Shown: positions 22,773 through 60,576, numbered from the stretch's first letter. The stretch: DNA of 64,000 bases from a virus (IMGVR_UViG_3300017716_001697:96001-160000); one strand, 5' to 3'. Numbers and translations are program-made. Notes: generated by a model from the sequence alone, not told the origin.

Positions 22773-22854
22773 TTTTGTGGGGTGCCCATGGTGGGGCCTT
22801 ACAAAATAACGTGCATAGCACGAACAAACTTGCTTTAACTAAGGAGTTAAAAAT
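22773..22854 (+). promoter_or_regulatory. Structured hsp20 5' leader with ROSE-like RNA thermometer
   Basis: Three hairpins; the last pairs ACUUGCUU with AAGGAGU (SD) with the G bulged, the ROSE U(U/C)GCU signature. Confidence 0.65.
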
Positions 22855-23271
22855 ATGTCTATAAATCGCGAATTCGATCGTCTATTCGATCACCTCAATC
22901 AAGTTGCAGTTGGCTTCGGCCCTATATTTAGGGACTTCCAGCACACCTCGGCTAATTATCCTCCACACAACATCATTACTATTTCGGATAATGAATTCAA
23001 TCTTGAATTAGCTGTTGCCGGATTTAAAAAGAGTGAACTCACAATCCAGGAAGATGGTGGCGTGCTTACGATATCAGCTGATAAAGCTAATGTCGCTAGT
23101 GACTCAACCACATATCAACACCGTGGTATTGCAAAAAGGTCATTCTCTAAGTCTTTCCGTATTGCAGAGCACTTTGAAATACGTGAAGCTAACCTAGAGG
23201 ATGGGATTCTTACTATTAACTTTGTTAATAATACGCCAGTAAACCAACCTAAACTTATTGCTATAACGTAA
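22855..23271 (+). CDS. Small heat-shock protein Hsp20 (IbpA-like)
   Basis: NYPPHNI, LELAVAGF, YQHRGIAKRSFSKSF, ANLEDGIL. Confidence 0.92.
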   Translation: MSINREFDRLFDHLNQVAVGFGPIFRDFQHTSANYPPHNIITISDNEFNLELAVAGFKKSELTIQEDGGVLTISADKANVASDSTTYQHRGIAKRSFSKSFRIAEHFEIREANLEDGILTINFVNNTPVNQPKLIAIT

Positions 23272-23276
23272 TCGAG

Positions 23277-23305
23277 TTGACACAATGCCCTGTAGAGTAT
23301 ATAAT
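23277..23305 (+). promoter_or_regulatory. sigma70 promoter TTGACA-N17-TATAAT
   Basis: Perfect consensus upstream of clpS. Confidence 0.8.
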
Positions 23306-23332
23306 AGTATTATTACTCTCAGGGCAACTAAA

Positions 23333-23644
23333 ATGGCAACACCAGACATAGAAATCATCGAGAAGATTGATGAAAGAATTAAGGTACATATCCCAAGTAT
23401 GTATAAGGTAATTCTGCACAATGACAATACGACAACCGTGGATTTTGTTATCCACGTATTGATGCGCATCTTTCATAAGACGCTCGAAGAGGCACTAGCA
23501 ATCACACAATTAGTACACGAAAACGGGCAAGGCATTGCTGGCAGTCCTTACACTAAAGAAATAGCTGAAGAGAAATCACTGGAGACAATTGGCATTGCAA
23601 GGGCAAACAATTTTCCACTGGTAGCAACCTACGAAGAAGTATAA
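23333..23644 (+). CDS. clpS: Clp protease adaptor ClpS
   Basis: PSMYKVILHNDNTTTVDFVIHVL..IF..VHENG.G...EIAEEK..AR.NNFPL. Confidence 0.9.
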   Translation: MATPDIEIIEKIDERIKVHIPSMYKVILHNDNTTTVDFVIHVLMRIFHKTLEEALAITQLVHENGQGIAGSPYTKEIAEEKSLETIGIARANNFPLVATYEEV

Positions 23645-23647
23645 ATA
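23640..23647 (+). promoter_or_regulatory. T4-late promoter TATAAATA
   Basis: Exact T4 late consensus overlapping the clpS stop. Confidence 0.6.
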
Positions 23648-23669
23648 TCTCGTACACAACGAGAACTCA

Positions 23670-24704
23670 ATGGCATCAAACTTAATTCAAATTAAAGCAT
23701 TTCTTGGAAAATATTATCCGGAATTAGCATACTCTGTAGCGCAAGACAAATATATCAAGACTGGCATAAGCAAATTTCTCGAACAAAGATTTATTATTCA
23801 GAATAATAAAACTCAGATGGTAATTGATCCCAGTCTTAAAGGGCTGGTAGCCATTGTTGCTGGCAATGAAATATTTGTCAGTAAAGAATTGTACGAACAC
23901 ACGAATGTGAACGTAACAAATTCGATGGAAACACCTAATACAAACAATAACCCTAAGAGTTTATATACACCAGAAATTTTCTCTTCGATGGCATACCTAA
24001 TTTGCCAAAATCATACTATGTTCAGCATAGTAGGGGAAATTGATGAACCGATCTATATTAGATACAGATCAGACTATGAATCATTTTATAATTCGGTAAT
24101 CATTGTAAATATTGCTGACGGAATAGACGTGGAAATTGTCGAAGAATTCGAGAGTTACTGTGCACTGAATGCTGTGACTAATTACATTCTTCAACCCAAT
24201 TCTAGGTTAACTGTATCAACCTTCTATCAGAATCACCTGTCTGCGCTGTCATTCTGCCTTAGAAATGTTATAGTACAAGACTCGGCAAAATACAGCCACA
24301 CATTGTTCGGCCGTGGCTCGTCTTGTGTGCTAGACGAAAGTAAAATTCATGCAAACGATAAGTCATCGGTTGAATTAATGGCATGTATCAATCCCGTGCA
24401 ACAAGAATTTCATACAATTATAGGTGTTCAACCCGGCGCACAAGATTACAAATTCTTGTTAGACCATAGACATGTTGTCTCGGGGAGAGGGAGAACAACA
24501 TTCACACCCGTGATCATAGGGCACCTACCGGCAGATTCCTATTCTAACATTAGCTCTATAGTGTTAGATGATGCTGACGAGGAAGTAAGGGCAATAAGGG
24601 CGAAGAATTTCTTATCGTCGATTGTCGAACGATCAACACTGGAACGAACAGTGGGAGTCGAACGATTCTACGATAATAAATCTAAGTTTCTTCAATTTCA
24701 ATAA
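23670..24704 (+). CDS. Divergent SufB/SufD-like beta-helix protein
   Basis: PIYIRY..IIVNIADGIDVEIVEEF..NAVTNYILQPNSRL..YQN..RNVIVQDSAKY.H..FG pattern resembles the SufBD core; by-eye only. Confidence 0.5.
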   Translation: MASNLIQIKAFLGKYYPELAYSVAQDKYIKTGISKFLEQRFIIQNNKTQMVIDPSLKGLVAIVAGNEIFVSKELYEHTNVNVTNSMETPNTNNNPKSLYTPEIFSSMAYLICQNHTMFSIVGEIDEPIYIRYRSDYESFYNSVIIVNIADGIDVEIVEEFESYCALNAVTNYILQPNSRLTVSTFYQNHLSALSFCLRNVIVQDSAKYSHTLFGRGSSCVLDESKIHANDKSSVELMACINPVQQEFHTIIGVQPGAQDYKFLLDHRHVVSGRGRTTFTPVIIGHLPADSYSNISSIVLDDADEEVRAIRAKNFLSSIVERSTLERTVGVERFYDNKSKFLQFQ

Positions 24705-24744
24705 ATAGTAAGTAGAATAATAATTAATTTTGCGGGGTAATTAC

Positions 24745-25074
24745 ATGTATAAAATAACAAATATAGAGACATTGGGAACAGATTATGCTGTTGCTAATCA
24801 GGACGGTAAGATACTTAAAAATATCCGTATTGTACCTCATACGGAAATTCTAGAAGCAGCATTAGGCCCATACACTGAAGAATTCGGTGATCTTAGTTCC
24901 TATATTGCGAAATCTATTGCGGTGTTGGAGGGTAATGAAGATTTGAGCCCGTATAACATATATTGGCACTCAACTGAAGATGAAGAAGTTGTGTTATCTG
25001 AAGTTATCGAATATGCAATCAAACATGGTTATGATATTATTATATTAGAGCATCTAGATCCCACAAATGAATGA
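24745..25074 (+). CDS. Hypothetical acidic protein
   Basis: ORF; ATG 24745. Confidence 0.55.
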   Translation: MYKITNIETLGTDYAVANQDGKILKNIRIVPHTEILEAALGPYTEEFGDLSSYIAKSIAVLEGNEDLSPYNIYWHSTEDEEVVLSEVIEYAIKHGYDIIILEHLDPTNE

Positions 25075-25258
25075 TAATGATCGGCTGCGTCCGAATGTAT
25101 GCACATGGATAGGCGACGAAGAAGGGTGTCGCCACCCCACTATATACGGTAAATCGTATTGTGAAACACATCACAGTAGAATGTACATTACACTATTTGC
25201 TGAGATGGCAGATTATATTATTGAACAAGAATTAACACACAATAAGGCAGTGCAATGA
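25067..25258 (+). CDS. Small C3H zinc-finger-like protein (resembles GcrA C-terminal domain)
   Basis: CTWIGD..C...GKSYCETH. Confidence 0.5.
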   Translation: MNDNDRLRPNVCTWIGDEEGCRHPTIYGKSYCETHHSRMYITLFAEMADYIIEQELTHNKAVQ

Positions 25259-25416
25259 CTACAGGTCACTGGTTAAACTTAACAGATCGAAAATCGCAGT
25301 CATTTACTATGCAGGCCACTACTATGTGTGCGGTAGTTATTGTGGTTACACCAATATTAGCGGCGCTAATGCTTGGTAGTATAGCAATAAAGTCAATTGA
25401 AAAAATAAGTAAATAA
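25255..25416 (+). CDS. 53-aa membrane peptide (below ORF-track cutoff)
   Basis: ATGA overlap; MTTGHW...AVVIVVTPILAALMLGSIAIK..; translated by hand. Confidence 0.45.
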   Translation: MTTGHWLNLTDRKSQSFTMQATTMCAVVIVVTPILAALMLGSIAIKSIEKISK

Positions 25417-25423
25417 TCTAATT

Positions 25424-25451
25424 AAAAAGGGTACCGTTGTGTACCTTTTTT
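25424..25451 (+). terminator. Intrinsic terminator
   Basis: AAAAAGGGTAC-loop-GTACCTTTTTT. Confidence 0.7.
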
Positions 25452-25477
25452 AATGGCTCATAGATCGGCCTTCCTTG

Positions 25478-25484
25478 ATAAATA
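25478..25484 (+). promoter_or_regulatory. T4-late-like promoter ATAAATA
   Basis: Direct match upstream of the 863-aa gene. Confidence 0.6.
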
Positions 25485-25526
25485 CAATATTAGACAATAT
25501 TGTGTTAACAGATTTAGGAGCCAGTA

Positions 25527-28118
25527 ATGGATCAACGAGACGAATTTAGCAAATGGATGACATCAATTGAACAGGCTCTTACTGAAGAATCTACTGTAGT
25601 TGATGAAGAATTACTTGAACAAGGTTCTTGCGGTGGATGCGGTGCATGGGATTGCCCAGAGTGCTTCCCTGATGCAGATGGTGCCCTAGACGGTGCACAA
25701 CAAATTCCGGCAGTTATTATCATCGGTGCTACACCAGATGCACAAGGCCAATCTGTTGGTCAACCACCTGCTCCAACTGAAGAACCACCTGCACAACCGC
25801 AGGGCGTGGGGATGGCAGGAACTCATCCAGTAGATGGCGATACGTTCGACCACGACGAAGAAGACGAAATTGACGTAACAATGATGGGCCAGGACGCCTT
25901 CGCCGAGGAAGACGAAGACGACATGGAGATGACACAACAACCTCTTCCACGTTCCGGCAACGGTGGCGTCACACTTGGTCATATTGTTCAGAAATTTGTA
26001 AAGGCTGGCGGCGGTGAAGAAGGTAGTGAAGAAGAATTGTCCGAAGATGATGGCGACGCATCTGAAATGATTGGTAAGATTATGTACATGCAAGACATGG
26101 GTCTAAGCAATGGTCAACATAATTACAACGAAGCTCAATTAGGTGCATTGCCACCAGAGCAACTAAAGTTAATACACGATGAAGTTACAGGTAATGTATC
26201 TGAAAATTCGAGTAAGCCAACAAAGCCGCAAACAAAGCCGAATAACTGGGACGGGCTTGACGATATATTGAATCCTACACCAGACCAGCCTATTGCAAAC
26301 TATGATAACACTGATGACGGTGAGCATAATGACACAATGCCCGATCCAGAAGCAACACCTTCTATGCCACGTGCATCAGCAGCGTCAACAAGGGCTAAAA
26401 CACAAGGAATGACTCCATCTGATACAATGCGCGATTTCATGGGCCGTATTAATCCAGAAGCGGGCGCAGGCGAGCCAGATATTGAACCCGAAGATACAAC
26501 CAATGCATTAGTTGCTAGAACAGCAGCCGATGTTCCGGCAGTTATAAGCGCCGCGATGCGTGTGGCTGGAGTAGAGATGCCAGAATGGCATTCCGTGAAT
26601 AATTTGCCTGGTTTTTCGCAATCAAACGTTCGTGGAATGGGTCGTAAAGTGTTCAGCATGTTCACATCTACTCCGCTAGAACAAATACAGACAATTGCTA
26701 ACGTCGATGGGCAAGGCCCTAACACAGATGCAGAATTACGTTCTGTAGCATCCTGGTTAATGAACAATGCAGACGACCTCGGTGAAGTAAAATTAGATCA
26801 CGGTGCAGCTATTCCTGGATACAAACCCGATGTTAAAGAATACAGCATAAATGGCGTAAGGTTCCATGTAGTAAGAGATCCGATGGGACAGTACATTTAT
26901 GCATATCCAGATGCAGATGCAAAGACAAATACGGGCGCAGGAAGACTAGGACAAGGACAACAACCACCACAGGGCGCTATGCCTAGAATACGCGAAGGGA
27001 AAGATATGGCATTTAGATTAACAATTACAGAAGCTATTAAGTTAGATGATATTATTAGAGAAGGGTTAGCTTCGTTGATTTTTGAATCCGAAGTAGTAGA
27101 TGAAAGTTCGCTTAGTAAGGTATTGGGTAAGAATAAAGGCGGACAACAACTTGTTCGTTTCTTGCATAGCAAACACAAATTAAGTAACGAAGCCCAATTA
27201 GAGCCAGTTAAATTCAACAAAGATCTGTTGTGGTCGCAATTTAAGAGCCACCCGGACGATTTTGTGATTGTATCCGGGGCCAATGGTGCAGCAGGTATCA
27301 AGCCTTCTAAGAAGCATTTCGATGATTATGTCAAAGCAAAGCAAGATAAGGGCCAGACGCCTAATCCAGGAAGAAACAGTTCGTTACAATACCAAATTGT
27401 TGCGTTTACTGATGATGGCGAGCGTGTTGATCCGGAATTGTTACGAGTACAACCCGAGCCAGGCGACGAACCAGTGCAACGTGACGTTGATCCGACTGTA
27501 ATGCGAGCACGTATGGGTAAAAACATTGGTTCCGATCTGCAGAATGCTAATAATACATTCAGATTGTTAAATGACCAAATTGGCCCTATCACGACTGTAT
27601 GGATTTCTGGTTTTGGTGGCTATCGTGGCGACCCCGATTCAGTTAAACCAGCAGTAGGTTCCGTTGAAAGAGATAAGATGAAAGCCCGTGACGAATTAGG
27701 TGCCGGGCCAGGTCGTCAGAAAGACCAAAAGCCTATGCCCGAACGTGAATCAGTGAATGCAGTCTTTAAGATGATTCGCCCAGTTCTTAAGAAATTAACT
27801 GCTGAAGCAATGTCTCCATTAATGAATGCACGTAAGCGTGCTATTGATGCTGATAACGAAGATCAAGTCGAAAGACTAACAGCGCGAATTAAGAAAATGA
27901 AGAATTTCCTAGAGCAGATAGACACCTCCGCTGATGTTGATATCAACAGTTCCAGCTTTGGACCATCACTTAGGCTTGCACTTGCTACAGCAGCTGGTGC
28001 CCGCAGCGGATCTGAAGAATATAAGCAATATCTGTCAGCAGCCGCCCGCGGAAGTCGTGCAGCATTGAAACCTGTGCTAGATGCGCTTAGAGACGAATTC
28101 TTTGCAAAGTTGGGATAA
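25527..28118 (+). CDS. Large acidic multi-segment putative head-internal protein
   Basis: Late promoter and AGGAG RBS; low-complexity linkers, many (I/L)xE-(S/G/A) sites, VTLGHIVQ motif shared with the next gene. Confidence 0.6.
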   Translation: MDQRDEFSKWMTSIEQALTEESTVVDEELLEQGSCGGCGAWDCPECFPDADGALDGAQQIPAVIIIGATPDAQGQSVGQPPAPTEEPPAQPQGVGMAGTHPVDGDTFDHDEEDEIDVTMMGQDAFAEEDEDDMEMTQQPLPRSGNGGVTLGHIVQKFVKAGGGEEGSEEELSEDDGDASEMIGKIMYMQDMGLSNGQHNYNEAQLGALPPEQLKLIHDEVTGNVSENSSKPTKPQTKPNNWDGLDDILNPTPDQPIANYDNTDDGEHNDTMPDPEATPSMPRASAASTRAKTQGMTPSDTMRDFMGRINPEAGAGEPDIEPEDTTNALVARTAADVPAVISAAMRVAGVEMPEWHSVNNLPGFSQSNVRGMGRKVFSMFTSTPLEQIQTIANVDGQGPNTDAELRSVASWLMNNADDLGEVKLDHGAAIPGYKPDVKEYSINGVRFHVVRDPMGQYIYAYPDADAKTNTGAGRLGQGQQPPQGAMPRIREGKDMAFRLTITEAIKLDDIIREGLASLIFESEVVDESSLSKVLGKNKGGQQLVRFLHSKHKLSNEAQLEPVKFNKDLLWSQFKSHPDDFVIVSGANGAAGIKPSKKHFDDYVKAKQDKGQTPNPGRNSSLQYQIVAFTDDGERVDPELLRVQPEPGDEPVQRDVDPTVMRARMGKNIGSDLQNANNTFRLLNDQIGPITTVWISGFGGYRGDPDSVKPAVGSVERDKMKARDELGAGPGRQKDQKPMPERESVNAVFKMIRPVLKKLTAEAMSPLMNARKRAIDADNEDQVERLTARIKKMKNFLEQIDTSADVDINSSSFGPSLRLALATAAGARSGSEEYKQYLSAAARGSRAALKPVLDALRDEFFAKLG

Positions 28119-28119
28119 C

Positions 28120-30027
28120 ATGTATTTAGATAGTCTTATAGAGTCCTTATTACTAGAAGGTGCCACGCTGACTAAAGGTAGTCAGCGTGTAATGAATGAT
28201 AAAAAACTTGTGCCAGCATTAGCTCAGACAGTTCGCGATGATGTTGCTATCAACCCCGCATCATTTCCAGCAGGTTCTAAGAACAATTTCAAGAAAGCAC
28301 CAGACGAAGAAGTAGCAAGCTGGTTCTTGGAAAATTTAGATAACATTGAACGTGCAGGATACGATGGTGCTGTATATTCGCGTGACGGTGCAAACAGTGA
28401 CTGGATTACTCGCAGGTACATTGCCGGTTCACATAATTGGGAAGATATTACTGGTGTGCTGAATATGAATTTATTCGACTGGTATGCATTAAAGAATCGT
28501 GATGCGCTAGATGCTAACCATCAGCAGATATCAAAATTCAATAGCATTCGTCAGATCGGTTCTTATATGGTAACACATTATAGGCAAGAGCTAGAACAAA
28601 CTCGCGATGCTGCTAAGAACGCTGCAAAAGATAAGTTAGCCAAGGCTATTCCTATTCTCGATAATGACGATTATAAGATATTCTGCACACTCAACCGTAT
28701 AGCAGGATGTAAACTGGGTCGTGGCACTCAATGGTGCACAGCAAATACAACTACAGATCAACATTATCATAGATATTCTAATGAAGCTATGTTATTTCAG
28801 TTGTTTCCTAAGAACCCCGAACAGGTTAGCAAACAAACCCGTGGTGGTAGGAAGACCGAAGGATCTGAAAAATATCAATTCGGTGCAGACGATAATGGCT
28901 CGTTCATGGACATAGCTGATGATCCTGTACCGAAGAATGTAGTTAGGACAAAGTTTCCATATCTGTATTCAGATCTTGTTGATGCGTTAACAAAGAATAA
29001 GGCTAAGATTGATACTGCAACAGAAAAGTTATCAGCAGATCCTACATTGCAGACAACTGATACAAAAGTTAAGAATTATAACGTAGATGATGAAATTAGA
29101 AAATTGCATAGGTTTGTAGACCGTGGATTCTTCACTGACGAAGTGCGCCCACCGAAGACTGCAGACCCAGCATTAGAACAACCGCCTCAGGCACCCCAGG
29201 AGAATCCAATGGAAGATATGAAGTCATTAGCAAAATCTATGCTAGAAGATGTGACATTAGGGCATATTGTACAACAATATAAACCGGCTAATAGTGACGG
29301 AGAAGAATCCCCTTTAACACACGGTGATGATAATCTCGATGAAGGTGAGCCTATGATCGGCGATGCTAAATCTAGATTAGTGCAGACATTAATGAGCCGC
29401 CAAGCTGCTATCGACGAAGAAGATGCAATGGCAGCACCTGCTCCCGGCGCAGCACCGATGCCCGGTGGTGAAGTAGGCGGACAAGCACAAACTGGTGGCA
29501 CATTAGGTGGCGCTGGCGGCGGTATGGGTGGTGGCGGGCAATATGCACCAGGAACGGCGCCCACAATGCCAGAATCAATTAACCAACAAGGAAAAGTTAC
29601 AATGGAAAATGTAGATAAAGACGTAGCAGCAATGCTTAACACATTAAAGAAATATGACAAGCTTACAGAAAGTGTACTAGGTATGGCTACTGTTGGTATG
29701 GCAAACAAGCGTGTTGTCGAAGATGACAACGATGCAGATGATGCAGAAATCGATGCCGACAAGAATGACATCGAAGCAGACGAATTAGACGAATCTGGAC
29801 CAGCTAAGAAAGACGTCCCTGCATTCTTGCGTAAAGAAAAGGGTGGCGACTGGAAAACATCTAAAGATGATTTAGAAAAAGAAAAAGACGACAAGATCAG
29901 CGATCCTAAAACACTTGCTAAGAACAATGGAACAAAGGTTGATGAATCAGCTGGTGTTGATCCAGAAATTCTTGAGTGGATGGGGCGTTTTGCTAAATTA
30001 GGCAACATGAAAGGTTACGGTAGATAA
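28120..30027 (+). CDS. Large putative head-internal protein with GxGTxWCTA (PcfJ-like) segment
   Basis: ATG 28120 follows upstream stop; CKLGRGTQWCTAN motif; acidic Gly/Pro-rich C-terminal half. Confidence 0.6.
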   Translation: MYLDSLIESLLLEGATLTKGSQRVMNDKKLVPALAQTVRDDVAINPASFPAGSKNNFKKAPDEEVASWFLENLDNIERAGYDGAVYSRDGANSDWITRRYIAGSHNWEDITGVLNMNLFDWYALKNRDALDANHQQISKFNSIRQIGSYMVTHYRQELEQTRDAAKNAAKDKLAKAIPILDNDDYKIFCTLNRIAGCKLGRGTQWCTANTTTDQHYHRYSNEAMLFQLFPKNPEQVSKQTRGGRKTEGSEKYQFGADDNGSFMDIADDPVPKNVVRTKFPYLYSDLVDALTKNKAKIDTATEKLSADPTLQTTDTKVKNYNVDDEIRKLHRFVDRGFFTDEVRPPKTADPALEQPPQAPQENPMEDMKSLAKSMLEDVTLGHIVQQYKPANSDGEESPLTHGDDNLDEGEPMIGDAKSRLVQTLMSRQAAIDEEDAMAAPAPGAAPMPGGEVGGQAQTGGTLGGAGGGMGGGGQYAPGTAPTMPESINQQGKVTMENVDKDVAAMLNTLKKYDKLTESVLGMATVGMANKRVVEDDNDADDAEIDADKNDIEADELDESGPAKKDVPAFLRKEKGGDWKTSKDDLEKEKDDKISDPKTLAKNNGTKVDESAGVDPEILEWMGRFAKLGNMKGYGR

Positions 30028-30042
30028 TATCTATCAATCAAG

Positions 30043-30064
30043 AAGGCACTTCGGTGCCTTTTTT
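30043..30064 (+). terminator. Intrinsic terminator
   Basis: AAGGCAC-TTCG-GTGCCTT-TTTT. Confidence 0.85.
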
Positions 30065-30077
30065 AATGGCCGAAATT

Positions 30078-30106
30078 TTGACTTTCGATTAAGTAAGTGT
30101 TATAAT
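30078..30106 (+). promoter_or_regulatory. sigma70-type promoter TTGACT-N17-TATAAT
   Basis: TTGACTTTCG variant. Confidence 0.75.
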
Positions 30107-30125
30107 TATTTAATTGGAGGACTCA

Positions 30126-30896
30126 ATGTCACATAAAGAAAAATTTTTAGAAGAATGTATTGTACTGGATACGGAAACAACCGGTAAAGATTACAATACG
30201 GCTGAAATTATTGAAACAGGGTTTGTTATCCGCGAAGGTGGAGAATGGATCTTATTTCAGGACTTACATAAACCTAAAGGCAAGATTCCACCAATGGTAG
30301 AGTCTATATGCTACATCACGAATAAAATGGTTGAAGACAAACCAGTCTTTGTTGATGCAAAAGAAACATTTCAAACAGTAGTCGATGGGTTTGCAAATGG
30401 GTATGCTGTAGGTCACAATTATTTCTATGATATGAAAGTATTGCAGAATCACGGTATTACAATGCCTAAGAATTCTATCTGTACATGGCGTATGGCTAAG
30501 AAGTTGTTTAATGGCATGAATGAGATTGAAAGTACAAGTCTACCATATTTGCGTTTTGCACTAGAACTAGATGTGCCAATTGATATGTACTGCCACCGTG
30601 CGGGCAACGATTCGTTTATAACCGGCAAATTACTTGAAATTATGGTGGATTTAATGGAGTCGTCTGATCTACTGGACCTAGACATGCCATACGGTCCACA
30701 AATTGCAGAATGGGCCGCAGCGCCTATTATTTACGAGCGTATGCCGTTTGGAAAACATAAGGGCGAACTAATGATCGATGTGCCACATAGCTACTGGAAG
30801 TGGGCAACACAGAATATGGATTCGCTAAACGAAGATGCTGATAACTTCGATCCCGATCTTGCGGCAAGCGTGCATAAGGCACTGGGACTAAATTAA
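30126..30896 (+). CDS. DEDDh 3'-5' exonuclease (ExoX/DnaQ-like)
   Basis: LDTETTG..IIE, GHNYFYD, HRAGND; C-terminal MPFGKHKG..DVPHSYW; GGAGG RBS. Confidence 0.88.
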   Translation: MSHKEKFLEECIVLDTETTGKDYNTAEIIETGFVIREGGEWILFQDLHKPKGKIPPMVESICYITNKMVEDKPVFVDAKETFQTVVDGFANGYAVGHNYFYDMKVLQNHGITMPKNSICTWRMAKKLFNGMNEIESTSLPYLRFALELDVPIDMYCHRAGNDSFITGKLLEIMVDLMESSDLLDLDMPYGPQIAEWAAAPIIYERMPFGKHKGELMIDVPHSYWKWATQNMDSLNEDADNFDPDLAASVHKALGLN

Positions 30897-30897
30897 A

Positions 30898-31071
30898 ATG
30901 GCTACAGCTAGAAATGATATCACTGGAGACTCACTAGCATCAAAGTCATCCACCGACGCCTATCGTAAAGGGTGGGAAACAACGTTCGGGAATAAGGCAG
31001 CAGAACTAGCTGTAGAGACTAAATTATCTGAGCAGACAGATCCGTCTGACGCAGAAAGTAACGACCTATAA
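30898..31071 (+). CDS. 57-aa phage protein (below ORF-track cutoff)
   Basis: MATARNDITGDSLASK..DAYRKGWETTFG; translated by hand. Confidence 0.6.
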   Translation: MATARNDITGDSLASKSSTDAYRKGWETTFGNKAAELAVETKLSEQTDPSDAESNDL

Positions 31072-31121
31072 TTTGGTCAGTGCACAGGGCACTAAAAATT
31101 AAAACACAAAAGGAAATATAA

Positions 31122-50278: not shown

Positions 50279-50279
50279 T

Positions 50280-51758: not shown

Positions 51759-51785
51759 ATGGGTTTAAATTATGACTCCCTTCTG

Positions 51786-51792
51786 ATAAATA
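51786..51792 (+). promoter_or_regulatory. T4-late-like promoter ATAAATA
   Basis: Direct match. Confidence 0.6.
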
Positions 51793-51813
51793 CATACAAG
51801 AAGAAGGAATATC

Positions 51814-52251: not shown

Positions 52252-52260
52252 GGAAATAAT

Positions 52261-53289
52261 ATGATTGTTGGTCAAAACGCACTCTTAAATCAATATGTAC
52301 CTACGTTCTTTATTAAGAATATTAAAGACGGCCAAGGCCTTAAATATGATGCCGTAAGAAAAGCATATGTTAATGCTGATATCGGCGGCGGCACTGGCGG
52401 TGTTGACCGTTTAGGTGAATTGTTAGACGTTAGTGATAGCGTTGACAATCCACTTGCATTACAAAATGGACAAGCATTAGTCTATAACACATTCACTAGT
52501 CTGTGGGAAAACAAATTCACAGATTATAATACTCTGCTAAACAAGCCGACCAGTAGCAGTTTTAGTTTCGCCGGTCTAAGTGATACTGCCAAGCCTTCGC
52601 TCCCTGACGGTTATGTTAAATGGAATTCAACTGGCACACAGTTGGTCTATTCTACCACTATACCAGCCGCTAGCATTACGGGTCTTGCAACTGTAGCAAC
52701 AACTGGTGATTACAACAGCTTGATAAACAGACCGATCCTAAATACAGGTACGGTCACATCTGTGGGTATGTCCGGTGGTACAACAGGACTTACTACCTCG
52801 GGTGGTCCAATAACAACTGCTGGCACAATCACATTAGGCGGCATATTAGCTATTGCAAATGGTGGTACAGGTGCTGCAACCGCAGCAGATGCAATTAATG
52901 CATTAGTACCATCGCAAACCGGTAATGTTGGAATGTTCTTAACAACCAACGGTACAATAGTTTCGTGGGCGCCAGCGGGTGGTTCGGGTGGGACAATTAC
53001 ACTTACTGGTGATGTGACAGGTACTGGCACTAGCCCAGTTACCACAACACTTGCAACGGTAAATACAACACCAGGGACATATGCTGATTCACACTATGTT
53101 CCTACTATAACAGTAAACAATAAAGGTCTTGTTACTTCGATCACAACTCAACATGTGGATGAGTCCATAAGAGATTTAGTTGATCTAACAGAAACATTAG
53201 TAATAGAGACAAGGCATCAATATATAGTCACTGGTACATTAGAGGTATTAGGGCGTATAGAAAACAATGGGAGAATTGCAATATTATGA
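52261..53289 (+). CDS. Tail fibre-like protein
   Basis: TGDYNSL, GTVTSV..GPITT.GTITL, LTGDVTG, TVNNKGLVT repeats. Confidence 0.7.
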   Translation: MIVGQNALLNQYVPTFFIKNIKDGQGLKYDAVRKAYVNADIGGGTGGVDRLGELLDVSDSVDNPLALQNGQALVYNTFTSLWENKFTDYNTLLNKPTSSSFSFAGLSDTAKPSLPDGYVKWNSTGTQLVYSTTIPAASITGLATVATTGDYNSLINRPILNTGTVTSVGMSGGTTGLTTSGGPITTAGTITLGGILAIANGGTGAATAADAINALVPSQTGNVGMFLTTNGTIVSWAPAGGSGGTITLTGDVTGTGTSPVTTTLATVNTTPGTYADSHYVPTITVNNKGLVTSITTQHVDESIRDLVDLTETLVIETRHQYIVTGTLEVLGRIENNGRIAIL

Positions 53290-54764
53290 GCAGACCAGCA
53301 GACATCTTACTTAAACAAGGTAATACAACACCAATTTGGCCAACATCGGGGCAAATTTCATTCTATGCTAAGGACAATGGTATATTCTATTCCTTAGATT
53401 CTAACGGTGTAGAGACACCATTTAGCAGTGGTTCGGGATCTGGCACAGTTACATCCGTTAGTGTTTTAGCTAACCCTAGCAGAATTACTGCTACTGGGAA
53501 TCCTATCACTACATCGGGCTCGATTAATATTGACTTAGCAACAACCACAGTGACAGCAGGTGCATACACCAGTGCTGATATAACAGTTGATGCATACGGT
53601 CGCATTACAGCAGCCAGCAGCGGCGTACTAACATCCGGGCAAGTAACAACAGCACTGGGATTTACGCCATATAACGCCACAAATCCATCAGGATATACAT
53701 CAAATACGGGCACTGTAACTAGTGTCGTAGTGTCTGGTGGTTCTACAGGATTATCGTTCGCTGGAACACCAATTACGACATCCGGTACAGCTACAATGAG
53801 TGGTACATTAGCAATTGCTAACGGTGGTACAGGACAAACAACAGCTTCGGCAGCAATCAATGCATTGATGCCATCCCAGACAGGTAATACAGGTAAGTTT
53901 TTAACTACTAACGGTAGCGTGCTATCTTGGGCTACAGTTTCTGGTACAGGTACTGTAACTTCTGTTTCGGCTACAGGTTCTTCAGATATCACAGTAGGTG
54001 GTTCGCCAATTACTACAAGTGGCACACTGACATTCGCATTAGCTAACACTACAGTGGTTGCCGGTGCTTATACAAATGCCAATGTGACAGTCGACAGCAA
54101 GGGCCGTGTCACTGCAATTAGCAATGGTACAGCAGGTGCAGGTACAGTAACTTCTGTTTCTGTTAACGGCACAGCAGGAAGAATTACATCTTCTGGTTCT
54201 CCTATTACTGCATCTGGTGCAATAACATTAGATTTAGCAACAACAGCAGTGACACCAGCAACATACGGTAGTGCAACCCAAGTTCCTGTATTCAGCGTCG
54301 ATTCATATGGTAGAGTTACAGGTGTAACAAATACAACGATCACCGGTGGCGGATCAAGTGCGCCAGAAATTGTTGTATTCCATTATAGTTCCGGCAACTC
54401 CGGCACATTTAATGTTGTTGATGCTATATTCTCTCAGACATCGGGTGTTACAGCTACAGTTATCGATGCTGCAAACTGCATAGCAACATATTCGTTCACA
54501 GGCAAGTCTAACCCACCTAAGTCAGTAACTATGTATGGTCAGAATTATGCAGCTAATACTTTCAGTGTTACAAGTTGGCCAGCTACGGGCGCAGCAGCAG
54601 CTAACTATAAAATTGCAGGAGGCGGCACAGCAGCATCCCCGGATCTGGCTAACGGTATCTTTACTGCATCTAACATAGTTACAATGCAGACAAGAATGTC
54701 TGATACGGGTGCATCATCAACAGTAGGTAATAGGGCATGGGCAATCATGGTGTTTGGATTCTAA
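53286..54764 (+). CDS. Tail fibre-like protein
   Basis: Four GTVTSV..G.PIT.SG units each with TVD.YGR(I/V)T. Confidence 0.75.
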   Translation: MSRPADILLKQGNTTPIWPTSGQISFYAKDNGIFYSLDSNGVETPFSSGSGSGTVTSVSVLANPSRITATGNPITTSGSINIDLATTTVTAGAYTSADITVDAYGRITAASSGVLTSGQVTTALGFTPYNATNPSGYTSNTGTVTSVVVSGGSTGLSFAGTPITTSGTATMSGTLAIANGGTGQTTASAAINALMPSQTGNTGKFLTTNGSVLSWATVSGTGTVTSVSATGSSDITVGGSPITTSGTLTFALANTTVVAGAYTNANVTVDSKGRVTAISNGTAGAGTVTSVSVNGTAGRITSSGSPITASGAITLDLATTAVTPATYGSATQVPVFSVDSYGRVTGVTNTTITGGGSSAPEIVVFHYSSGNSGTFNVVDAIFSQTSGVTATVIDAANCIATYSFTGKSNPPKSVTMYGQNYAANTFSVTSWPATGAAAANYKIAGGGTAASPDLANGIFTASNIVTMQTRMSDTGASSTVGNRAWAIMVFGF

Positions 54765-54767
54765 AAT

Positions 54768-56801
54768 ATGGCTTTCTTAAATATACCACTAAAGGCAATA
54801 CAGGGTAATATCACGTCGGTATCCGGGATTGCTACGATGCCTTGGTACAATCCATTGAGTTTTCCTGTAATACCCGGAGACCCACAACCTACGCCGCTAC
54901 AGAAAGATTTCAAGTGGCGTGTGACTATGGATATAGATATACAGACTCAGAGTTCATATCTTACACGCAAACCGGGATCGTATAATGGGCAAGACGTTAC
55001 GGTTGGTTTGTGGATGGCAAATGTAACAACCGGTCAAGCATGGCAAATCACATTAATAGAATCTAAAACTACTACGTCTGCTACCGTTATTCTACAGGAT
55101 ATCTATCGTTATAACACGTATAGGGATATGTCCGGTGGTGGCAACGGCGCACCCAATACTGGTGCATATATTATATTTAATATAGGTGATACAGGCGTAC
55201 CAGAGATTGATCCGGTTCCACCGGGTGGTGTATCGTCGACATTCGGTATAAACATTCAGAGTAGATTCGAATATATAAATCTACAGTATGATTATCCATT
55301 ATATCAGAGCGGCAACACATTCAATATTGGCGATGTTGTTGCAGTGGACACTACTACACACTCTTATGTAAAATCCGACTCATCTAGCAGGATTGTTGTT
55401 GGCCGTGTTACATCTATTTCCGACACAATACCTGGCTGGTTCACAATAAATCCAGTACAGAAAATCGTAGATAATCTTGATTATCTACCGGGATATGTCG
55501 GCGATATTATTTACTCTGATCTAACTATTCCTGGTGAAATTACTACCACTCCGGGCGGATCTCAGATATATGTTAAGTTGCGTAATAACACATCATCTAT
55601 ATCTATAAGCACTGTTAAAGATGGCTCAACAACCCCAGGTAATGTATTCCAATTAAACGGAATTGATGTTACAGTAGGTGGCACCGGTTCATTAAGTGAT
55701 GTTGCAGATGCCAGCAATTTACAGAGCCCACTAACAGACGTAGTTGCTTCTATTGTTATATCAGAAAATATAGTTCAGACTGACCCCTTGCTAATCAACC
55801 CAACATACGGTGAAGTATTATTATGGGCTGCAAGCCTATTTGCTACCGCACTCATTAATGGAGTACCTGTTGTATTTAATATATTATCAACAGACCCCGG
55901 GTATGAGAACTATGCAAGACCACAACAAATGGCGCAATCTATTAATGCTGCCAATATCCCTAATATTGTGGCTACAGTAATAGGTCAATCTTTAAGGATT
56001 ACAAATGTAGCAGGCGGTGCAATTACTATTGTTAATGGTGCCGCAGATTTAAATGGTATAGATTTTGCAGGTAATGCATCGGGCAGTGGTTTAGTATTAT
56101 CTACACCAGCAGTTTCCACATATCAGATAAAATTTATAACTGTTGATGCTCGTGCAATAAATTTCTTAGATGTAGTTGGCGCCACAGTCGACGATATAGG
56201 TCTTGTTTCCGTAGAAAACGGTGTAAAAGCTTGCGGACTTTATATTGAGGAAGGATTGCGTAATGCAATTTCTACAGTTGTATCGAATTTAGCAGCAATG
56301 TATGCATTATCACCATTGATTGGTGACCAAGCATATGTCATTGATAGTGCTGATGCACAAGGCAATAATGTAGGTGAATGGAGTTTATGGCTATTCAACG
56401 GAACTATATGGGTACAAACAAGTAACCAAGATAGTGCTACTACTGATGCGAAATCCATCGAATATACCGTTACAACGGCCAGCCCATCATCGATAAATAT
56501 TGGTAATATAAGTACAGGAAGACGTGTGACTCTTATTACAATTGAAGTAACTCAGGCATTTGATGCGCCAGCAGTATTAGCAATTGGATATGCAATTGAC
56601 AACCCAATTCCACCAACACCTGTACCAGATGGATTGATGATTTATGGATTGTCTGACTTGACAGTTGTGGGGACTTATACGACAAGCACAGACATACTAT
56701 TTGGAACAGATACAGTTCAGGGAGACGTAACAATTACTTCATTGTTTGTTGCGAATGGCTCAACCACAGGGTCGGCTCAAATCATTGTATCTTATGTGTA
56801 A
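54768..56801 (+). CDS. Virion structural protein (baseplate/tail-associated)
   Basis: 677 aa beta-rich ORF in structural operon. Confidence 0.55.
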   Translation: MAFLNIPLKAIQGNITSVSGIATMPWYNPLSFPVIPGDPQPTPLQKDFKWRVTMDIDIQTQSSYLTRKPGSYNGQDVTVGLWMANVTTGQAWQITLIESKTTTSATVILQDIYRYNTYRDMSGGGNGAPNTGAYIIFNIGDTGVPEIDPVPPGGVSSTFGINIQSRFEYINLQYDYPLYQSGNTFNIGDVVAVDTTTHSYVKSDSSSRIVVGRVTSISDTIPGWFTINPVQKIVDNLDYLPGYVGDIIYSDLTIPGEITTTPGGSQIYVKLRNNTSSISISTVKDGSTTPGNVFQLNGIDVTVGGTGSLSDVADASNLQSPLTDVVASIVISENIVQTDPLLINPTYGEVLLWAASLFATALINGVPVVFNILSTDPGYENYARPQQMAQSINAANIPNIVATVIGQSLRITNVAGGAITIVNGAADLNGIDFAGNASGSGLVLSTPAVSTYQIKFITVDARAINFLDVVGATVDDIGLVSVENGVKACGLYIEEGLRNAISTVVSNLAAMYALSPLIGDQAYVIDSADAQGNNVGEWSLWLFNGTIWVQTSNQDSATTDAKSIEYTVTTASPSSINIGNISTGRRVTLITIEVTQAFDAPAVLAIGYAIDNPIPPTPVPDGLMIYGLSDLTVVGTYTTSTDILFGTDTVQGDVTITSLFVANGSTTGSAQIIVSYV

Positions 56802-56816
56802 ATGGAAAGGGTATAG

Positions 56817-56823
56817 ATAAATA
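56817..56823 (+). promoter_or_regulatory. T4-late-like promoter ATAAATA
   Basis: Followed by AGGCCA-TAG-TGGCCT hairpin and AGGAG RBS. Confidence 0.6.
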
Positions 56824-56869
56824 AAGCGTTGAAGGCCATAGTGGCCTATAATTAGGAGAAATAAATAAA

Positions 56870-59800
56870 ATGGCTAATGTAAAAAATTTCGGTCTTATTG
56901 GCGTAGGTGCAGATCTACAGTTTGGTAAGGCTGGTACACGTCTTGTAAATAACGAAGGCGTATTTAACTTTAAGGCAGCAAATGGTTCGACAGACGTCGC
57001 ATTAACATCTGCTGGTATCACATCGTCTGCTGGTAATGTTACGTTAACAACTGGCAATGTAGTGTTGACAAGCGCATCCGGTGTCGTAAGCATCGGTGGC
57101 GATAATATGTTGCAAGCAGCAACTGGTGGTTATCCACAGTTGTCCGGTGTAGCATCCGTATTGATTCCTACAGGTGCTACCGCATCTCGTCCGGGTACAG
57201 GCGTTGCTGGTATGGTTCGTGTAAACAACGACACACCAACTGCATCTTATGTTGAATTCTTCAACGGTACAGCATGGGCTACACTTGCTACTGGTGGTTC
57301 CACTGGTGCTCTTCAGACAGAAATTGACAACATTGAAACTACATTAGGTACAATGATCAATACTGACGGTACATCGAATACAGCAGCAGCTCTAACAAGT
57401 TCGTTGTTCGGCGGTGCTTCCACATTGACAGCAGCATTGAACAACTTGGCATCTGGTATTTCTTCTAAAGATACACTTGATGAAATCGAGCCGGGCGAAG
57501 GCGCTGGTAAGGTATTGTACTTAGATGGTGGCAACACATGGCAACAAGCTCTTCCGGGTTCTACATCTGGTGTTCAGGCTTGGGACGCTGGTCTTGACGC
57601 ACTTTCTGCAAAGACATCCACAGGTATTATTGTTCAGACTGGTGCTGATACATACGGTACAGCTACAATCACAGGCCCAGCTAGCGGTATCTCCGTTACA
57701 AACGGTGACGGTGTTGCTGGTAACCCGACTCTTGCTCTTACTAACGACTTAGCAGCGTTAGAAAACTTGTCTGGTACAGGTTTTGCAGTTCGTTCTGCTG
57801 CTGATACATGGGTACAGCGTTCGTTAGTTGCTCCAGCAGCTGGCTTTACAATTACTGATCCTGCAGGTATTGCTGGTAACCCAACTTTTGCTCTTGCTAA
57901 TGACTTAGCAGCAGTGGAAGGTTTGACAACAGTCGGTTATATGGTTCGTACAGGTGACGGCACAGCAGCTACACGTACAATGAATGTTGTTTCTGGCGAT
58001 TTGGCTATCACAGGTGATGCTGACGGTCAATCCACAGATACTACATTTGGTTTGGCAACAGTTACACAAGCTGCAACAGGTTCTTTCGTTAAGGTTACAC
58101 TTGACACTAAGGGTCGTGTTACAGGTAATACAGCAGTAACAACATCTGATATCACAACATTAGTTGATGGTACATATGTTAATGTAACTGGCGATTCCAT
58201 GAGCGGTATCTTATCGTTTACTGGTGGTGCTACTGTTACAGGTCTTCCAACTCCAGTTAACGCAACTGATGCAGCTAACAAGTCTTATGTTGACAATGCT
58301 GTAGCTGGTATGACATGGAAAGCAGCAGCTAATTTACTTTCGGGTACTGATTTCCCATTGACAGGTACATGGGCAAGTATTACTGCTGGTATCGACGGTC
58401 ACCCACTTGATATTACTGATGTCGGTTACAGACTATTGCTTACTGGTCAGACAACTGATACAGAAAATGGTATCTGGACACTTACAAACATCGACGGTAC
58501 AAACTACTTGTTAGTACGTGCTTCGGATGCTGATACATATCAAGAACTTATTGGTGCTTCCATATTTGTTCAAGAAGGTACAGTATACGCTAATACAGGT
58601 TGGACACAATCTAACCATTACTTGACATCGTTTGCTGCTCAAAACTGGGTACAGTTCTCCGGCGCTGGCGCTTATTCCGGTGGTGTTGGTATTACAGTTT
58701 CTGGTACAATCATTAGTGCTAACTTAGGTGCTGGTGTTACTAACTTGCCATCTGGCGAAATTGGTTTAGATATCGTTTCCAACTTAGCTGTACAACTAAC
58801 TTCGACAGCCACAGGCGGTCAGTTAACATTAGTACTTGATACAGGCTCTGGTTTGTCTCAGTCGGCGACAGGTTTGAAGATTGCAGCAGCTGGCGTTACA
58901 AACGCAATGCTTGCTAACCCAGGCTTCACACTTAACGCTGATAGCGGTACAGATGCATCTGGTTTGCAACTTGGTGATACATTAATGATCAAGGGTACAT
59001 CTACACAGGGTATCGTAACTTCTGTGACAGAATCCCCAGCTGGTACATCGGAATTCACTATTACTGCTTCTAACGCTTCTTCTAGCCAGAAGGGTGTTGC
59101 TTCGTTTGATGCTACACAGTTCACAGTAACAGCTGGTAATGTTGTACTTGGTACAGTTCCAAATAGCGCACTTGCTAACAGCGTAATTACATTCACTGGT
59201 ACATCCGGTTCTGATGCAGTTGCTTTAGGTGAGTCTTTTGCAATTACTGGCACAGGTGGTATCACAACAGCAGTTACAGCAAATGCTATTACTGTTGATC
59301 TTGGTACAGTTGCAGTAAACCATGGTGGTACTGGCTTAACAACATTAGCAGTTAACCAGTTGTTGATTGGTAACGGTACAAGTCCAGTTGCACAATCCGC
59401 TAACCTTACATTCGCAGCTGATGTGTTGACAGTTGGTGGTGCATTACCATTGACATTCGACGGTGCGCTTGGTGCAATTTCTGCTACTGCTACAAACAGC
59501 GATTTAGTGCTTATGCCTAATGGTACTGGATCTGTAGTTGTTGGCCCAGTTGGTGCTGGTTTGATCCAGTCCGATGCAGCTACAGCATTGACAATCCGTG
59601 GTAACACAACGTTGACATTAGAATCTGGTACAGGCGATACAACAATGTTGTTGACAACTGGTACAGGCAGCAAAGTTACAGTTTCTGGTCCTACAGCAGC
59701 TGACTATGCAACAGGTCTTACAGCCAATGATCTTACCAACAAGCAATATGTTGATGATGCTATTCAATCTGGTGCAGCTTCTGGTTCTATCAAGGCTGTC

Positions 59801-60091
59801 AAGGTTGCATTGTCTGGTGCAGGAACAACAAACATCGGTGCAGCAATGCCAGCTGGTGCAACAGTTCTTTCTGTTAAGTTGCAAGTAACTGTTGCTGAAG
59901 CAACTGGTACAGTTTCTGTTGGTAAGACAGGAAGTGTTGCAGCATACATGACAACAGCAGAAAACGATCCATCTACAACTGGTTTGTACTTGGCTGAAAC
60001 ATATGTAACAGAAGCCGCTTCTGAGCAAGTAATTGCTACAGTTGCAGTTGGTGGTACATACAATGTTATCGTTGAATACCAAGTCGCTTAA
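56870..60091 (+). CDS. Long tail fibre-like protein (1073 aa)
   Basis: G/T/A-rich; NGDGVAGNPTLAL repeats, LDTKGRVT, DAANKSYVD / DLTNKQYVD, ASSSQKGVASF. Confidence 0.75.
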   Translation: MANVKNFGLIGVGADLQFGKAGTRLVNNEGVFNFKAANGSTDVALTSAGITSSAGNVTLTTGNVVLTSASGVVSIGGDNMLQAATGGYPQLSGVASVLIPTGATASRPGTGVAGMVRVNNDTPTASYVEFFNGTAWATLATGGSTGALQTEIDNIETTLGTMINTDGTSNTAAALTSSLFGGASTLTAALNNLASGISSKDTLDEIEPGEGAGKVLYLDGGNTWQQALPGSTSGVQAWDAGLDALSAKTSTGIIVQTGADTYGTATITGPASGISVTNGDGVAGNPTLALTNDLAALENLSGTGFAVRSAADTWVQRSLVAPAAGFTITDPAGIAGNPTFALANDLAAVEGLTTVGYMVRTGDGTAATRTMNVVSGDLAITGDADGQSTDTTFGLATVTQAATGSFVKVTLDTKGRVTGNTAVTTSDITTLVDGTYVNVTGDSMSGILSFTGGATVTGLPTPVNATDAANKSYVDNAVAGMTWKAAANLLSGTDFPLTGTWASITAGIDGHPLDITDVGYRLLLTGQTTDTENGIWTLTNIDGTNYLLVRASDADTYQELIGASIFVQEGTVYANTGWTQSNHYLTSFAAQNWVQFSGAGAYSGGVGITVSGTIISANLGAGVTNLPSGEIGLDIVSNLAVQLTSTATGGQLTLVLDTGSGLSQSATGLKIAAAGVTNAMLANPGFTLNADSGTDASGLQLGDTLMIKGTSTQGIVTSVTESPAGTSEFTITASNASSSQKGVASFDATQFTVTAGNVVLGTVPNSALANSVITFTGTSGSDAVALGESFAITGTGGITTAVTANAITVDLGTVAVNHGGTGLTTLAVNQLLIGNGTSPVAQSANLTFAADVLTVGGALPLTFDGALGAISATATNSDLVLMPNGTGSVVVGPVGAGLIQSDAATALTIRGNTTLTLESGTGDTTMLLTTGTGSKVTVSGPTAADYATGLTANDLTNKQYVDDAIQSGAASGSIKAVKVALSGAGTTNIGAAMPAGATVLSVKLQVTVAEATGTVSVGKTGSVAAYMTTAENDPSTTGLYLAETYVTEAASEQVIATVAVGGTYNVIVEYQVA

Positions 60092-60137
60092 TAGCTGACC
60101 AATAATAGCTACCCGAAAGAGTAGCTATACATAAATA

Positions 60138-60167
60138 AGGCCTCGGTTAACCCCGGGGCTTTTTTAC
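60138..60167 (+). terminator. Intrinsic terminator
   Basis: GGCCTCGG-loop-CCGGGGCT-TTTTT, preceded by ATAGCTAC..GTAGCTAT hairpin. Confidence 0.7.
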
Positions 60168-60176
60168 GGCTATACG

Positions 60177-60183
60177 ATAAATA
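60177..60183 (+). promoter_or_regulatory. T4-late-like promoter ATAAATA
   Basis: Direct match. Confidence 0.55.
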
Positions 60184-60202
60184 CAGTACAACAGGAAACA
60201 TT

Positions 60203-60493
60203 ATGAAAATACTTAAAATACTCGATGACTCGCTAAAAGATAACGCCACCGGACAATATTCACATGCACGTATAATTGCTATGTTGGTTGCATTCGCTGC
60301 TACAATTTTTATGTGGAAGCTTATTGTATTGGGTGGTATGAATATTGAATACTTTATCAGCTACCTTGCATATGGCACTGGCGCACAAACACTAAACAAA
60401 TTCTTAGATAACAGAGATCCTACACGCCCTGCAGTCGCTATACCGAAACCTGCTGTGGTTGATGAACTACCACCGAAACCGCCAAAACCTTAA
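60203..60493 (+). CDS. Small two-TM membrane protein, holin candidate
   Basis: Late promoter; two hydrophobic segments; Pro/Lys-rich C-terminus. Confidence 0.5.
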   Translation: MKILKILDDSLKDNATGQYSHARIIAMLVAFAATIFMWKLIVLGGMNIEYFISYLAYGTGAQTLNKFLDNRDPTRPAVAIPKPAVVDELPPKPPKP

Positions 60494-60531
60494 TTTTTAC
60501 CACATATTAAGTGAATAATTGCTGCACTGCA

Positions 60532-60538
60532 ATAAATA
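60532..60538 (+). promoter_or_regulatory. T4-late-like promoter ATAAATA
   Basis: Direct match. Confidence 0.55.
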
Positions 60539-60552
60539 CGTTATACTAAAGA

Positions 60553-60576
60553 CACTGTGCTCATGGTGAGGCAGTG
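60553..60576 (+). promoter_or_regulatory. Leader hairpin matching the hsp20 leader hairpin
   Basis: CACUG-UG-CUCA-UGG-UGAG-G-CAGUG. Confidence 0.55.

Follow-up and report, generated by a model that had tools for sequence, protein, structure and literature searches.

Two leaders of a giant freshwater phage carry copies of one bulged-G hairpin resembling the upstream module of ROSE/ibpA-type leaders

Why should two genes of a giant phage begin their leaders with almost the same RNA hairpin? The question is raised by IMGVR_UViG_3300017716_001697:96001-160000, a stretch of 64,000 nucleotides (hereafter the window) that represents bases 96,001-160,000 of a giant freshwater phage genome; this genome measures 364,576 bp, has a G+C content of 41.6% and is bounded by direct terminal repeats. 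One hairpin precedes hsp20, a small-heat-shock gene, and the other precedes a gene that starts at position 60621 (hereafter the 60621 gene); an earlier note on this DNA had proposed a conserved protein-binding RNA motif that regulates both. Judged by sequence and predicted fold, a single cis-acting module is present here in two copies, namely the bulged-G hairpin that stands upstream in ROSE/ibpA-type leaders and is temperature-stable, because the same shape occurs in E. coli ibpA, in bacterial IbpA leaders and in cyanophages. As the same conserved hairpin stands before both genes, these are probably controlled together post-transcriptionally. We put at about 0.55 the probability that the hairpin is the ROSE/ibpA upstream module and that its apex couples the two mRNAs through one trans-acting factor, for which the IbpA-like Hsp20 of the phage would, by analogy, be the best candidate.

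The sequences and coordinates given earlier for the two hairpins (22773-22806 and 60553-60576) were exact. Both fold into an outer stem, a U.G pair, a single bulged G, a 4-bp inner stem and a UGG triloop (Table 1). The inner stem is CCCA/UGGG in the hairpin at 22773 and CUCA/UGAG in the one at 60553, and the C-G versus U-A swap that had been reported there is real. Calculated fold energies were -16.5 kcal/mol (z -2.7) for 22773-22806 and -9.4 kcal/mol (z -2.0) for 60553-60576. A search of all 364,576 bp for the 16-nucleotide core GTGCYCATGGTGRGGC returned the two hairpins and no other site; both are intergenic.

Many related jumbo-phage contigs with the same gene order and a ClpX that is 65-79% identical were found in IMG/VR; nucleotide and protein searches found no close relative in the cultured-phage collection. 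For comparison we used the hsp20 leaders of about 21 relatives and a set of 13 non-redundant contigs with a 60621 homolog. The first hairpin (hairpin I) was present in all of the approximately 21 hsp20-bearing relatives, directly 3' of the promoter motif. In their alignment 97.7% of cells were paired and 6 of the 12 pairs had changed on both sides, a level of covariation that no shuffle reached; the closing pair was U.G or C-G, and the next G was always unpaired. Hairpin I of the 60621 family was conserved, bulged G included, in 12/13 non-redundant relatives, with 95.6% of cells paired, five of nine pairs changed on both sides, and U.G, U-A or C-G as closing pair. Because relatives vary the closing pair in this way while the G stays unpaired, the feature described as a 2x1 internal loop (UG/G) is more aptly taken for a closing pair followed by a single bulged G. 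The apex conserved in both families begins with a Y-R closing pair and a single bulged G, continues as the stem C-Y-C(A)/(U)G-R-G and ends in a loop of 3-5 nucleotides; the base of the stem is free to vary in sequence and covaries. As for the UGG triloop, it is indeed shared by both window hairpins and preferred, but it is not invariant among relatives.

In both families G.U pairs were seen on the sense strand only, which argues for an RNA structure and not a DNA palindrome. The opposite reading, in which the promoter would hold a palindromic operator bound by a dimeric DNA-binding protein, could appeal to the apex CCCA-N3-TGGG, a near-palindrome beside a promoter-like motif. We give it almost no credence, as the many sense-strand G.U pairs correspond to C-A mismatches on the complementary strand, the symmetry is interrupted by the bulged G, and in E. 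coli ibpA, as in bacterial ROSE leaders, the same hairpin is found in the middle of the leader.

Covariance-model searches of the genome and of related phages returned further instances with covariation in both sets of homologous leaders. We used a model of the relatives' hsp20 hairpins only (R1), one of the 60621 family only (R2) and a joint model (R3). On the whole genome, R1 recovered the window hsp20 hairpin with 41.6 bits and ranked the 60621 hairpin second (16.1 bits, E about 1.2); on the 13 loci of the 60621 family all seven of its matches were hairpin I. Reciprocally, the top four matches of R2 on 20 hsp20 loci were hairpin I. One R2 match at window positions 36984-37023 was rejected as spurious, because it falls within coding sequence and contains a long insert. 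R3 gave exactly two matches per genome in six genomes (G000, G001, G003, G004, G011 and G013). The pairs were confirmed as the hsp20 leader plus the leader of a 60621 homolog in G000, G001, G003, G004 and G013, and for G011 the first match (1268-1289) was taken as hsp20 by assumption; the 60621 homolog of G013 had previously gone unrecognised and was revealed by R3. Hence the earlier claim of a conserved, covarying motif shared by both leaders was borne out at exactly those genes in related genomes with enough sequence. In more distant jumbo phages (ClpX 39-54% identical) the hsp20 hairpin was present, and neither a 60621 homolog nor a second copy of the hairpin was found.

One relative has lost both partners. 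IMGVR_UViG_3300009709_000001 (G002, locus L009), complete at 385,394 bp, is the only complete relative without any HSP20-family gene, and the leader of its 60621 homolog has kept the promoter and lost hairpin I; hairpin II in this leader is unbulged (GUGC-AAU-GCAC). Short contigs are uninformative for such co-loss. About 3.6 kb of other open reading frames lie between S21 and ClpS in this genome.

Could the likeness of two unrelated leader hairpins be fortuitous? Generic bulged-G hairpins and A-YRR-U triloop hairpins occur in this genome at chance frequency and show no intergenic enrichment, and the whole-genome score across families had an E value of about 1.2, both of which a chance origin would accommodate. 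The reciprocal model searches, however, matched only the right hairpins, with two per genome in at least six genomes; the families share the bulged G, the stem sequence, the loop preference and the position after the promoter; and G002 lost the hairpin together with hsp20. We therefore regard coincidence as very unlikely. The chance frequency of the generic descriptors also means that the genome contains no broader family of hairpins of this sort, and their lack of enrichment that the likeness is specific to these two leaders.

The hsp20 leader had been treated as an unknown element. That it holds a conserved RNA motif stands; the leader as a whole, based on its sequence and order of parts, is a ROSE-like small-heat-shock leader and a candidate RNA thermometer, with hairpin I as its upstream stem. 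Its succession of hairpin I, hairpin II and a hairpin that includes the Shine-Dalgarno (SD) sequence fits the ROSE pattern of two to four hairpins with the SD in the last. A U(U/C)GCU motif within 40 nucleotides of the start codon was found in 20/21 relatives' hsp20 leaders, a few bases before AAGGAG, and U-to-C changes within it keep the SD pairing. The region of hairpin II in the relatives holds one or two hairpins, and A-UGG-U is a frequent apex there. In many hsp20 leaders (for example those of L006, L018, L022 and L025) the second hairpin is capped by A-UGG-U or A-UGA-U, so the UGG triloop recurs inside one leader. The alignment with the Rfam model ROSE_3 was weak and covered 22812-22860 (16.9 bits against a cut-off of 43). 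An upstream leader peptide was also considered for hsp20. The AUG in the loop of hairpin I opens a frame of 16 codons (window 22788-22838) that closes at a UAA before the SD; as this AUG is not conserved in relatives, the frame is probably due to chance, and the leader peptide was rejected, the GUG of hairpin II being in frame in some relatives only.

The 60621 leader is built differently downstream of hairpin I. In 12 relatives the segments AGUGGC and GCAC of hairpin II are invariant, and the consensus fold makes it a second bulged-G hairpin. U(U/C)GCU within 40 nucleotides of the start was found in 0/14 leaders of the 60621 family, and their consensus fold contains no conserved pairing over the SD, which lies outside both hairpins. 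The hsp20 leader alone would therefore be a ROSE-like thermometer, and the second leader would share only the upstream module; in keeping with this, the hairpin at 22773 lies within an Hsp20/IbpA gene's 5' untranslated region (UTR; hsp20 at 22855), as ROSE elements do, whereas the one at 60553 does not. SD accessibility between 15 and 45 C, calculated with a nearest-neighbour partition function, did not separate the two leader families. An Rfam match of the 60621 leader to preQ1-II was dismissed as meaningless.

The module itself is found well beyond phages. Stem-loop 2 of the E. coli ibpA 5' UTR has a dot-bracket structure identical to that of the phage hairpin, with five outer pairs, a bulged G on the 5' side, a 4-bp stem closed by A-U and a triloop (GACCU-G-UCCA-UUG-UGGA-AGGUC compared with GGGGU-G-CCCA-UGG-UGGG-GCCUU in the phage). 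Like the phage hsp20 hairpin, it is located upstream of the U(U/C)GCU/SD hairpin on a small-heat-shock gene. It differs in its inner stem (UCCA/UGGA), in its U-A closing pair and in the long stem-loop 1 in front of it, whereas the phage hairpin is predicted to be 5'-terminal and also stands on a gene that encodes no small heat-shock protein (sHsp) and lacks a thermosensor. Within the 12-kb ibpA region of E. coli K-12, stem-loop 2 was the best R3 match (14.9 bits, E 0.008), a score that does not reach significance on the scale of the chromosome. When R3 was applied to 80 bacterial IbpA-like loci, mostly of alphaproteobacteria, 33 of the 53 matches, as counted from the match table, fell within the 150-nucleotide leader span on the sense strand, where about 3 were expected. 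The matches in bacterial leaders were of two kinds, upstream hairpins nearly identical to that of the phage and SD hairpins. To the first kind belongs the Reyranella upstream hairpin GCCG-U-G-CCCA-UUG-UGGG-G-CGGC, which scored 26.8 bits. The cultured cyanophages S-SM2 and S-SRM01 likewise have a U-G-CC...GG-G hairpin, followed by CUCGCUU...AGGAG, before hsp20.

That the matches include SD hairpins raises a further reading, in which hairpin I is itself a copy of the ROSE SD hairpin (YGCUC plus a G-rich, SD-like arm) and acts as a second thermosensor or decoy ribosome site, warming exposing a standby site for the 30S subunit. The alphaproteobacterial ROSE SD hairpin does have the core of phage hairpin I (Y.G pair, bulged G, C-G, U-A), the phage model matches true SD hairpins of alphaproteobacteria (AUGUYGCUCA...GGAGGAUAU), and the 3' arm of hairpin I reads GGUGAGG, GGGAGG or GGUGGGG. 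Yet phage hairpin I differs from these hairpins in that it has no working SD and is much more stable: its outer stem is long and stable (-16.5 kcal/mol), it is not followed by a start codon at a usable spacing, and its loop AUG varies among relatives. In Pseudomonas ibpA, the equivalent hairpin stays closed up to 50 C (PMC3669281). We consider a decoy site improbable; hairpin I is a stable look-alike of the thermosensor helix and not a sensor.

The main rival to a coupling function is a passive 5' module, in which hairpin I protects the 5' end of the mRNA, helps the leader to fold, or both; it would have no binding factor of its own, and the two leaders would share the apex through common descent. 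For the Pseudomonas ibpA thermometers, what hairpin I does is acknowledged to be unclear, with folding help or 5' stabilisation as the proposals (PMC3669281). A passive role is the one proposed by Krajewski et al. (2013) for this hairpin, which is not melted by temperature (PMC3669281), and in both phage families, as well as in distant relatives with sigma70 promoters, hairpin I begins within a few nucleotides of the predicted transcription start. A stem that merely stabilises, on the other hand, needs no conserved apex, and the bulged G and the C-Y-C/G-R-G stem are retained in E. coli, alphaproteobacteria, cyanophages and jumbo phages alike, above a stem base of freely changing sequence. Many other leaders of the genome open with gene-specific hairpins that lack such an apex, and the hairpin was lost along with hsp20 in G002. 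We hold a purely passive module to be a possible explanation, though not the likely one.

A trans-acting factor that reads the apex is our preferred reading, and the properties of the Hsp20 protein make it a plausible ligand by analogy with IbpA. In E. coli, the 5' UTR of ibpA is bound by IbpA itself, which represses translation, and repression by endogenous IbpA is compromised when ibpA stem-loop 1 or 2 is weakened or strengthened (bioRxiv 10.1101/2020.04.20.050740). Arg93 is indispensable for binding of IbpA to mRNA (PMC10474464), and control by IbpA extends to ibpB and rpoH (PMC10410725). In the phage Hsp20, Y35 and R95 are the equivalents of Y34 and R93 of E. coli IbpA, and the same residues are present in the Hsp20 of relatives and of cyanophages; E. 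coli IbpB has Gln at the R93 position. At the cationic positions R97 and K98 the phage protein is mixed, with Lys (K99) at the first and Ser (S100) at the second; among other phage Hsp20s, K/R occupies one of these sites or both.

With these elements, the apex of hairpin I would serve as the handle by which one trans-acting factor holds both mRNAs. Phage Hsp20, when free, would attach to both leaders and either repress their translation or make the mRNA less stable, and unfolded proteins would titrate Hsp20 away and release the leaders, a mode of action established for E. coli IbpA on ibpA, ibpB and rpoH. In the hsp20 leader, this control would come on top of thermosensing by U(U/C)GCU, which would pair with the SD around a second bulged G. 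In the 60621 leader, with the module, a second bulged-G hairpin and an SD that has no anti-SD, control by Hsp20 would act alone. More tentatively, and with considerable doubt, one may suppose that the bulged-G apex is the very RNA determinant recognised by IbpA-type sHsps, and that it moved off the thermosensor onto a second gene to form an aggregation-sensing Hsp20 regulon.

Several observations weigh against control through a shared, Hsp20-bound apex. Taken one by one, the matches across families score low (15-19 bits; E 0.03 to 1.2), and the leaders in each family are related by descent, so that they amount to about one comparison. With strict filters, R3 found nothing on the whole E. coli chromosome. 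The Rfam scan of both leaders likewise gave no match at the gathering threshold, with only the sub-threshold ROSE_3 alignment for hsp20; the ROSE, ROSE_2 and ROSE_3 models scored far below their thresholds, and a whole-genome scan was equally empty. Twelve bacterial IbpA loci with R3 matches, several of them with U(U/C)GCU, also fail in Rfam, and since leaders with the ROSE motif fail too, these models are narrow. Nearest-neighbour folding predicts no masking of the SD, even in the hsp20 leaders. On the protein side, K98 of IbpA is replaced by Ser (S100) in the phage Hsp20, and R93 and Y34 are general in alpha- and gammaproteobacterial IbpA, so that their presence does not discriminate. The relative without hsp20 is a single case. 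Finally, the two leaders of G005 agree in having C-G as closing pair, CUCA/UGAG as stem and a loop of 4 nucleotides, all of which are rare elsewhere, but this is offset by G013, in which the closing pairs differ between the leaders (C-G versus U.G); co-evolution of the apex is therefore not established.

The two leaders are preceded by different promoter arrangements. ATAAATA comes before both hairpins, as the earlier note had it, but the gap is 2 nucleotides in one case (22764-22770) and 14 in the other (60532-60538). The motif before hsp20 is the longer GATAAATA, of which 40 of the 60 plus-strand genome copies are intergenic, against an intergenic share of the genome of 9%; most copies lie 20-50 nucleotides upstream of start codons. 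Often as T/A-GATAAATA, it is the dominant intergenic promoter-like motif genome-wide (for example at window 22763-22770 and 56817-56824). T4-type late promoters have a TATAAATA-like -10 element that is read by a gp55-type sigma. Many leaders of the genome open with a gene-specific hairpin 0-3 nucleotides from GATAAATA, a gap tighter than a T4-type late start site allows if the whole hairpin is transcribed. One such leader, that of a gene for a 1073-residue structural protein, has a GGCCA-UAG-UGGCC hairpin at window 56833-56847 after GATAAATA; its apex, a YRR triloop closed by A-U, resembles that of hairpin I and has no bulged G. In the distant relatives L023, L028, L039 and L047, hairpin I of hsp20 is situated behind a consensus TTGACA-N17-TATAAT-type promoter in place of GATAAATA and begins at the expected transcription start.

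In front of the 60621 gene, the site carries AATAAATA embedded in a promoter of sigma70-like type. This reads TTGCNN-N17-TAYACT, its spacer contains (G)ATAAATA, and it is conserved in the 13 relatives. Because this conserved promoter lies in front with ATAAATA in its spacer, the earlier designation of both as late leaders is uncertain for this one. A TGC-N3/4-GCA inverted repeat is also conserved in the 13 relatives (including the L082-L104 loci) and is followed by a T-run in several of them; it may serve to terminate the gene upstream, as an operator, or in both ways.

The 60621 product is conserved in the 13 relatives at 41-62% identity. Its AlphaFold model has five helices and a mean predicted local distance difference test score (pLDDT) of 71.6. 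Searches in Pfam, PHROG and NCBIfam, a PDB profile search and Foldseek on the AlphaFold model gave no match, and no HSP20 domain was found in the product. Its neighbour clusters in the ESM Atlas offer a faint lead, LETM1_RBD, which is annotated in only 12-13% of members. It had been suggested that the product is stress or chaperone related; the shared leader is what ties it to stress, and nothing else does. The hsp20 gene, for its part, belongs to a conserved row of proteostasis and translation genes at window 21248-24704 (ClpX, ribosomal protein S21, Hsp20, ClpS and a SufBD-like protein), in which the relatives have 0.1-3.6 kb of other genes between S21 and hsp20.

Table 1 Features of the two leaders and their genes, with positions in the window.
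Feature	Position	Strand	Details or basis
Promoter-like GATAAATA	22763..22770	+	Intergenic enrichment; conserved before hairpin I in most close relatives
hsp20 hairpin I	22773..22806	+	Outer stem 22773-22782/22797-22806; U22783.G22796; bulged G22784; inner stem 22785-22788/22792-22795; loop UGG
hsp20 hairpin II, CGUGC-AUA-GCACG	22810..22822	+	Predicted leader fold; weak match aligns with first hairpin of Rfam ROSE_3
Putative ROSE-type thermosensor	22829..22846	+	CUUGCUU 22829-22835 opposite SD AAGGAG 22841-22846, with bulged G
hsp20 gene, 138 amino acids, IbpA-like	22855..23271	+	Pfam HSP20 1e-13; PHROG 432; NCBIfam IbpA/IbpB about 1e-21
60621-gene promoter region, predicted	60519..60547	+	TTGCTG 60519-60524; 17-nucleotide spacer with ATAAATA 60532-60538; TATACT 60542-60547; overlaps TGC-N3-GCA palindrome
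60621-gene hairpin I	60553..60576	+	Outer stem CACUG/CAGUG; U60558.G60571; bulged G60559; inner stem CUCA/UGAG; loop UGG
60621-gene hairpin II, GUG-G-CC...GG-CAC	60588..60603	+	Bulged G60591
60621-gene SD AAGGAG and start codon	60606..60623	+	SD 60606-60611, start 60621; without ROSE anti-SD
60621 gene, 126-amino-acid all-helical protein	60621..61001	+	Hydrophobic helix near residues 85-105; homologs and AlphaFold model

Two matters that the literature leaves open are touched by these leaders, namely the role of the upstream hairpin in ROSE/ibpA leaders (PMC3669281) and the RNA feature required for repression by IbpA (bioRxiv 10.1101/2020.04.20.050740; PMC10474464). The phage clade offers a natural dissection, in which the same bulged-G hairpin occurs once with and once without a thermosensing SD hairpin and is gone together with hsp20; a short defined RNA of about 22 nucleotides and a defined residue (R95) are thereby on offer for direct study. 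If the more tentative reading of the apex is true, the phage would have a small post-transcriptional regulon under Hsp20, made up of hsp20 and the gene for a 126-residue helical protein anchored in the membrane, and the whole of it would disappear once hsp20 is lost. The leaders also show that large phages include heat-shock-type leaders in their gene-control repertoire, a use of which we found no description in the literature searched.

Among known systems, the two-hairpin ROSE-like thermometers of Pseudomonas ibpA (PMC3669281; ROSE_3, RF02523) have, like the phage hsp20 leader, a stable conserved hairpin I followed by a U(U/C)GCU SD hairpin, a comparison that rests on hairpin order, stability, U(U/C)GCU and gene type; the phage leader differs by an extra hairpin between the two. 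The second comparison is with the IbpA system of E. coli. Here the differences are that the second target in the phage is an unknown small helical protein, and that the RNA determinant bound by IbpA is undefined in the E. coli papers. The likeness is one of principle: as we propose for the phage, an sHsp in E. coli acts on structured 5' leaders, one belonging to the gene that encodes it and one to a different gene.

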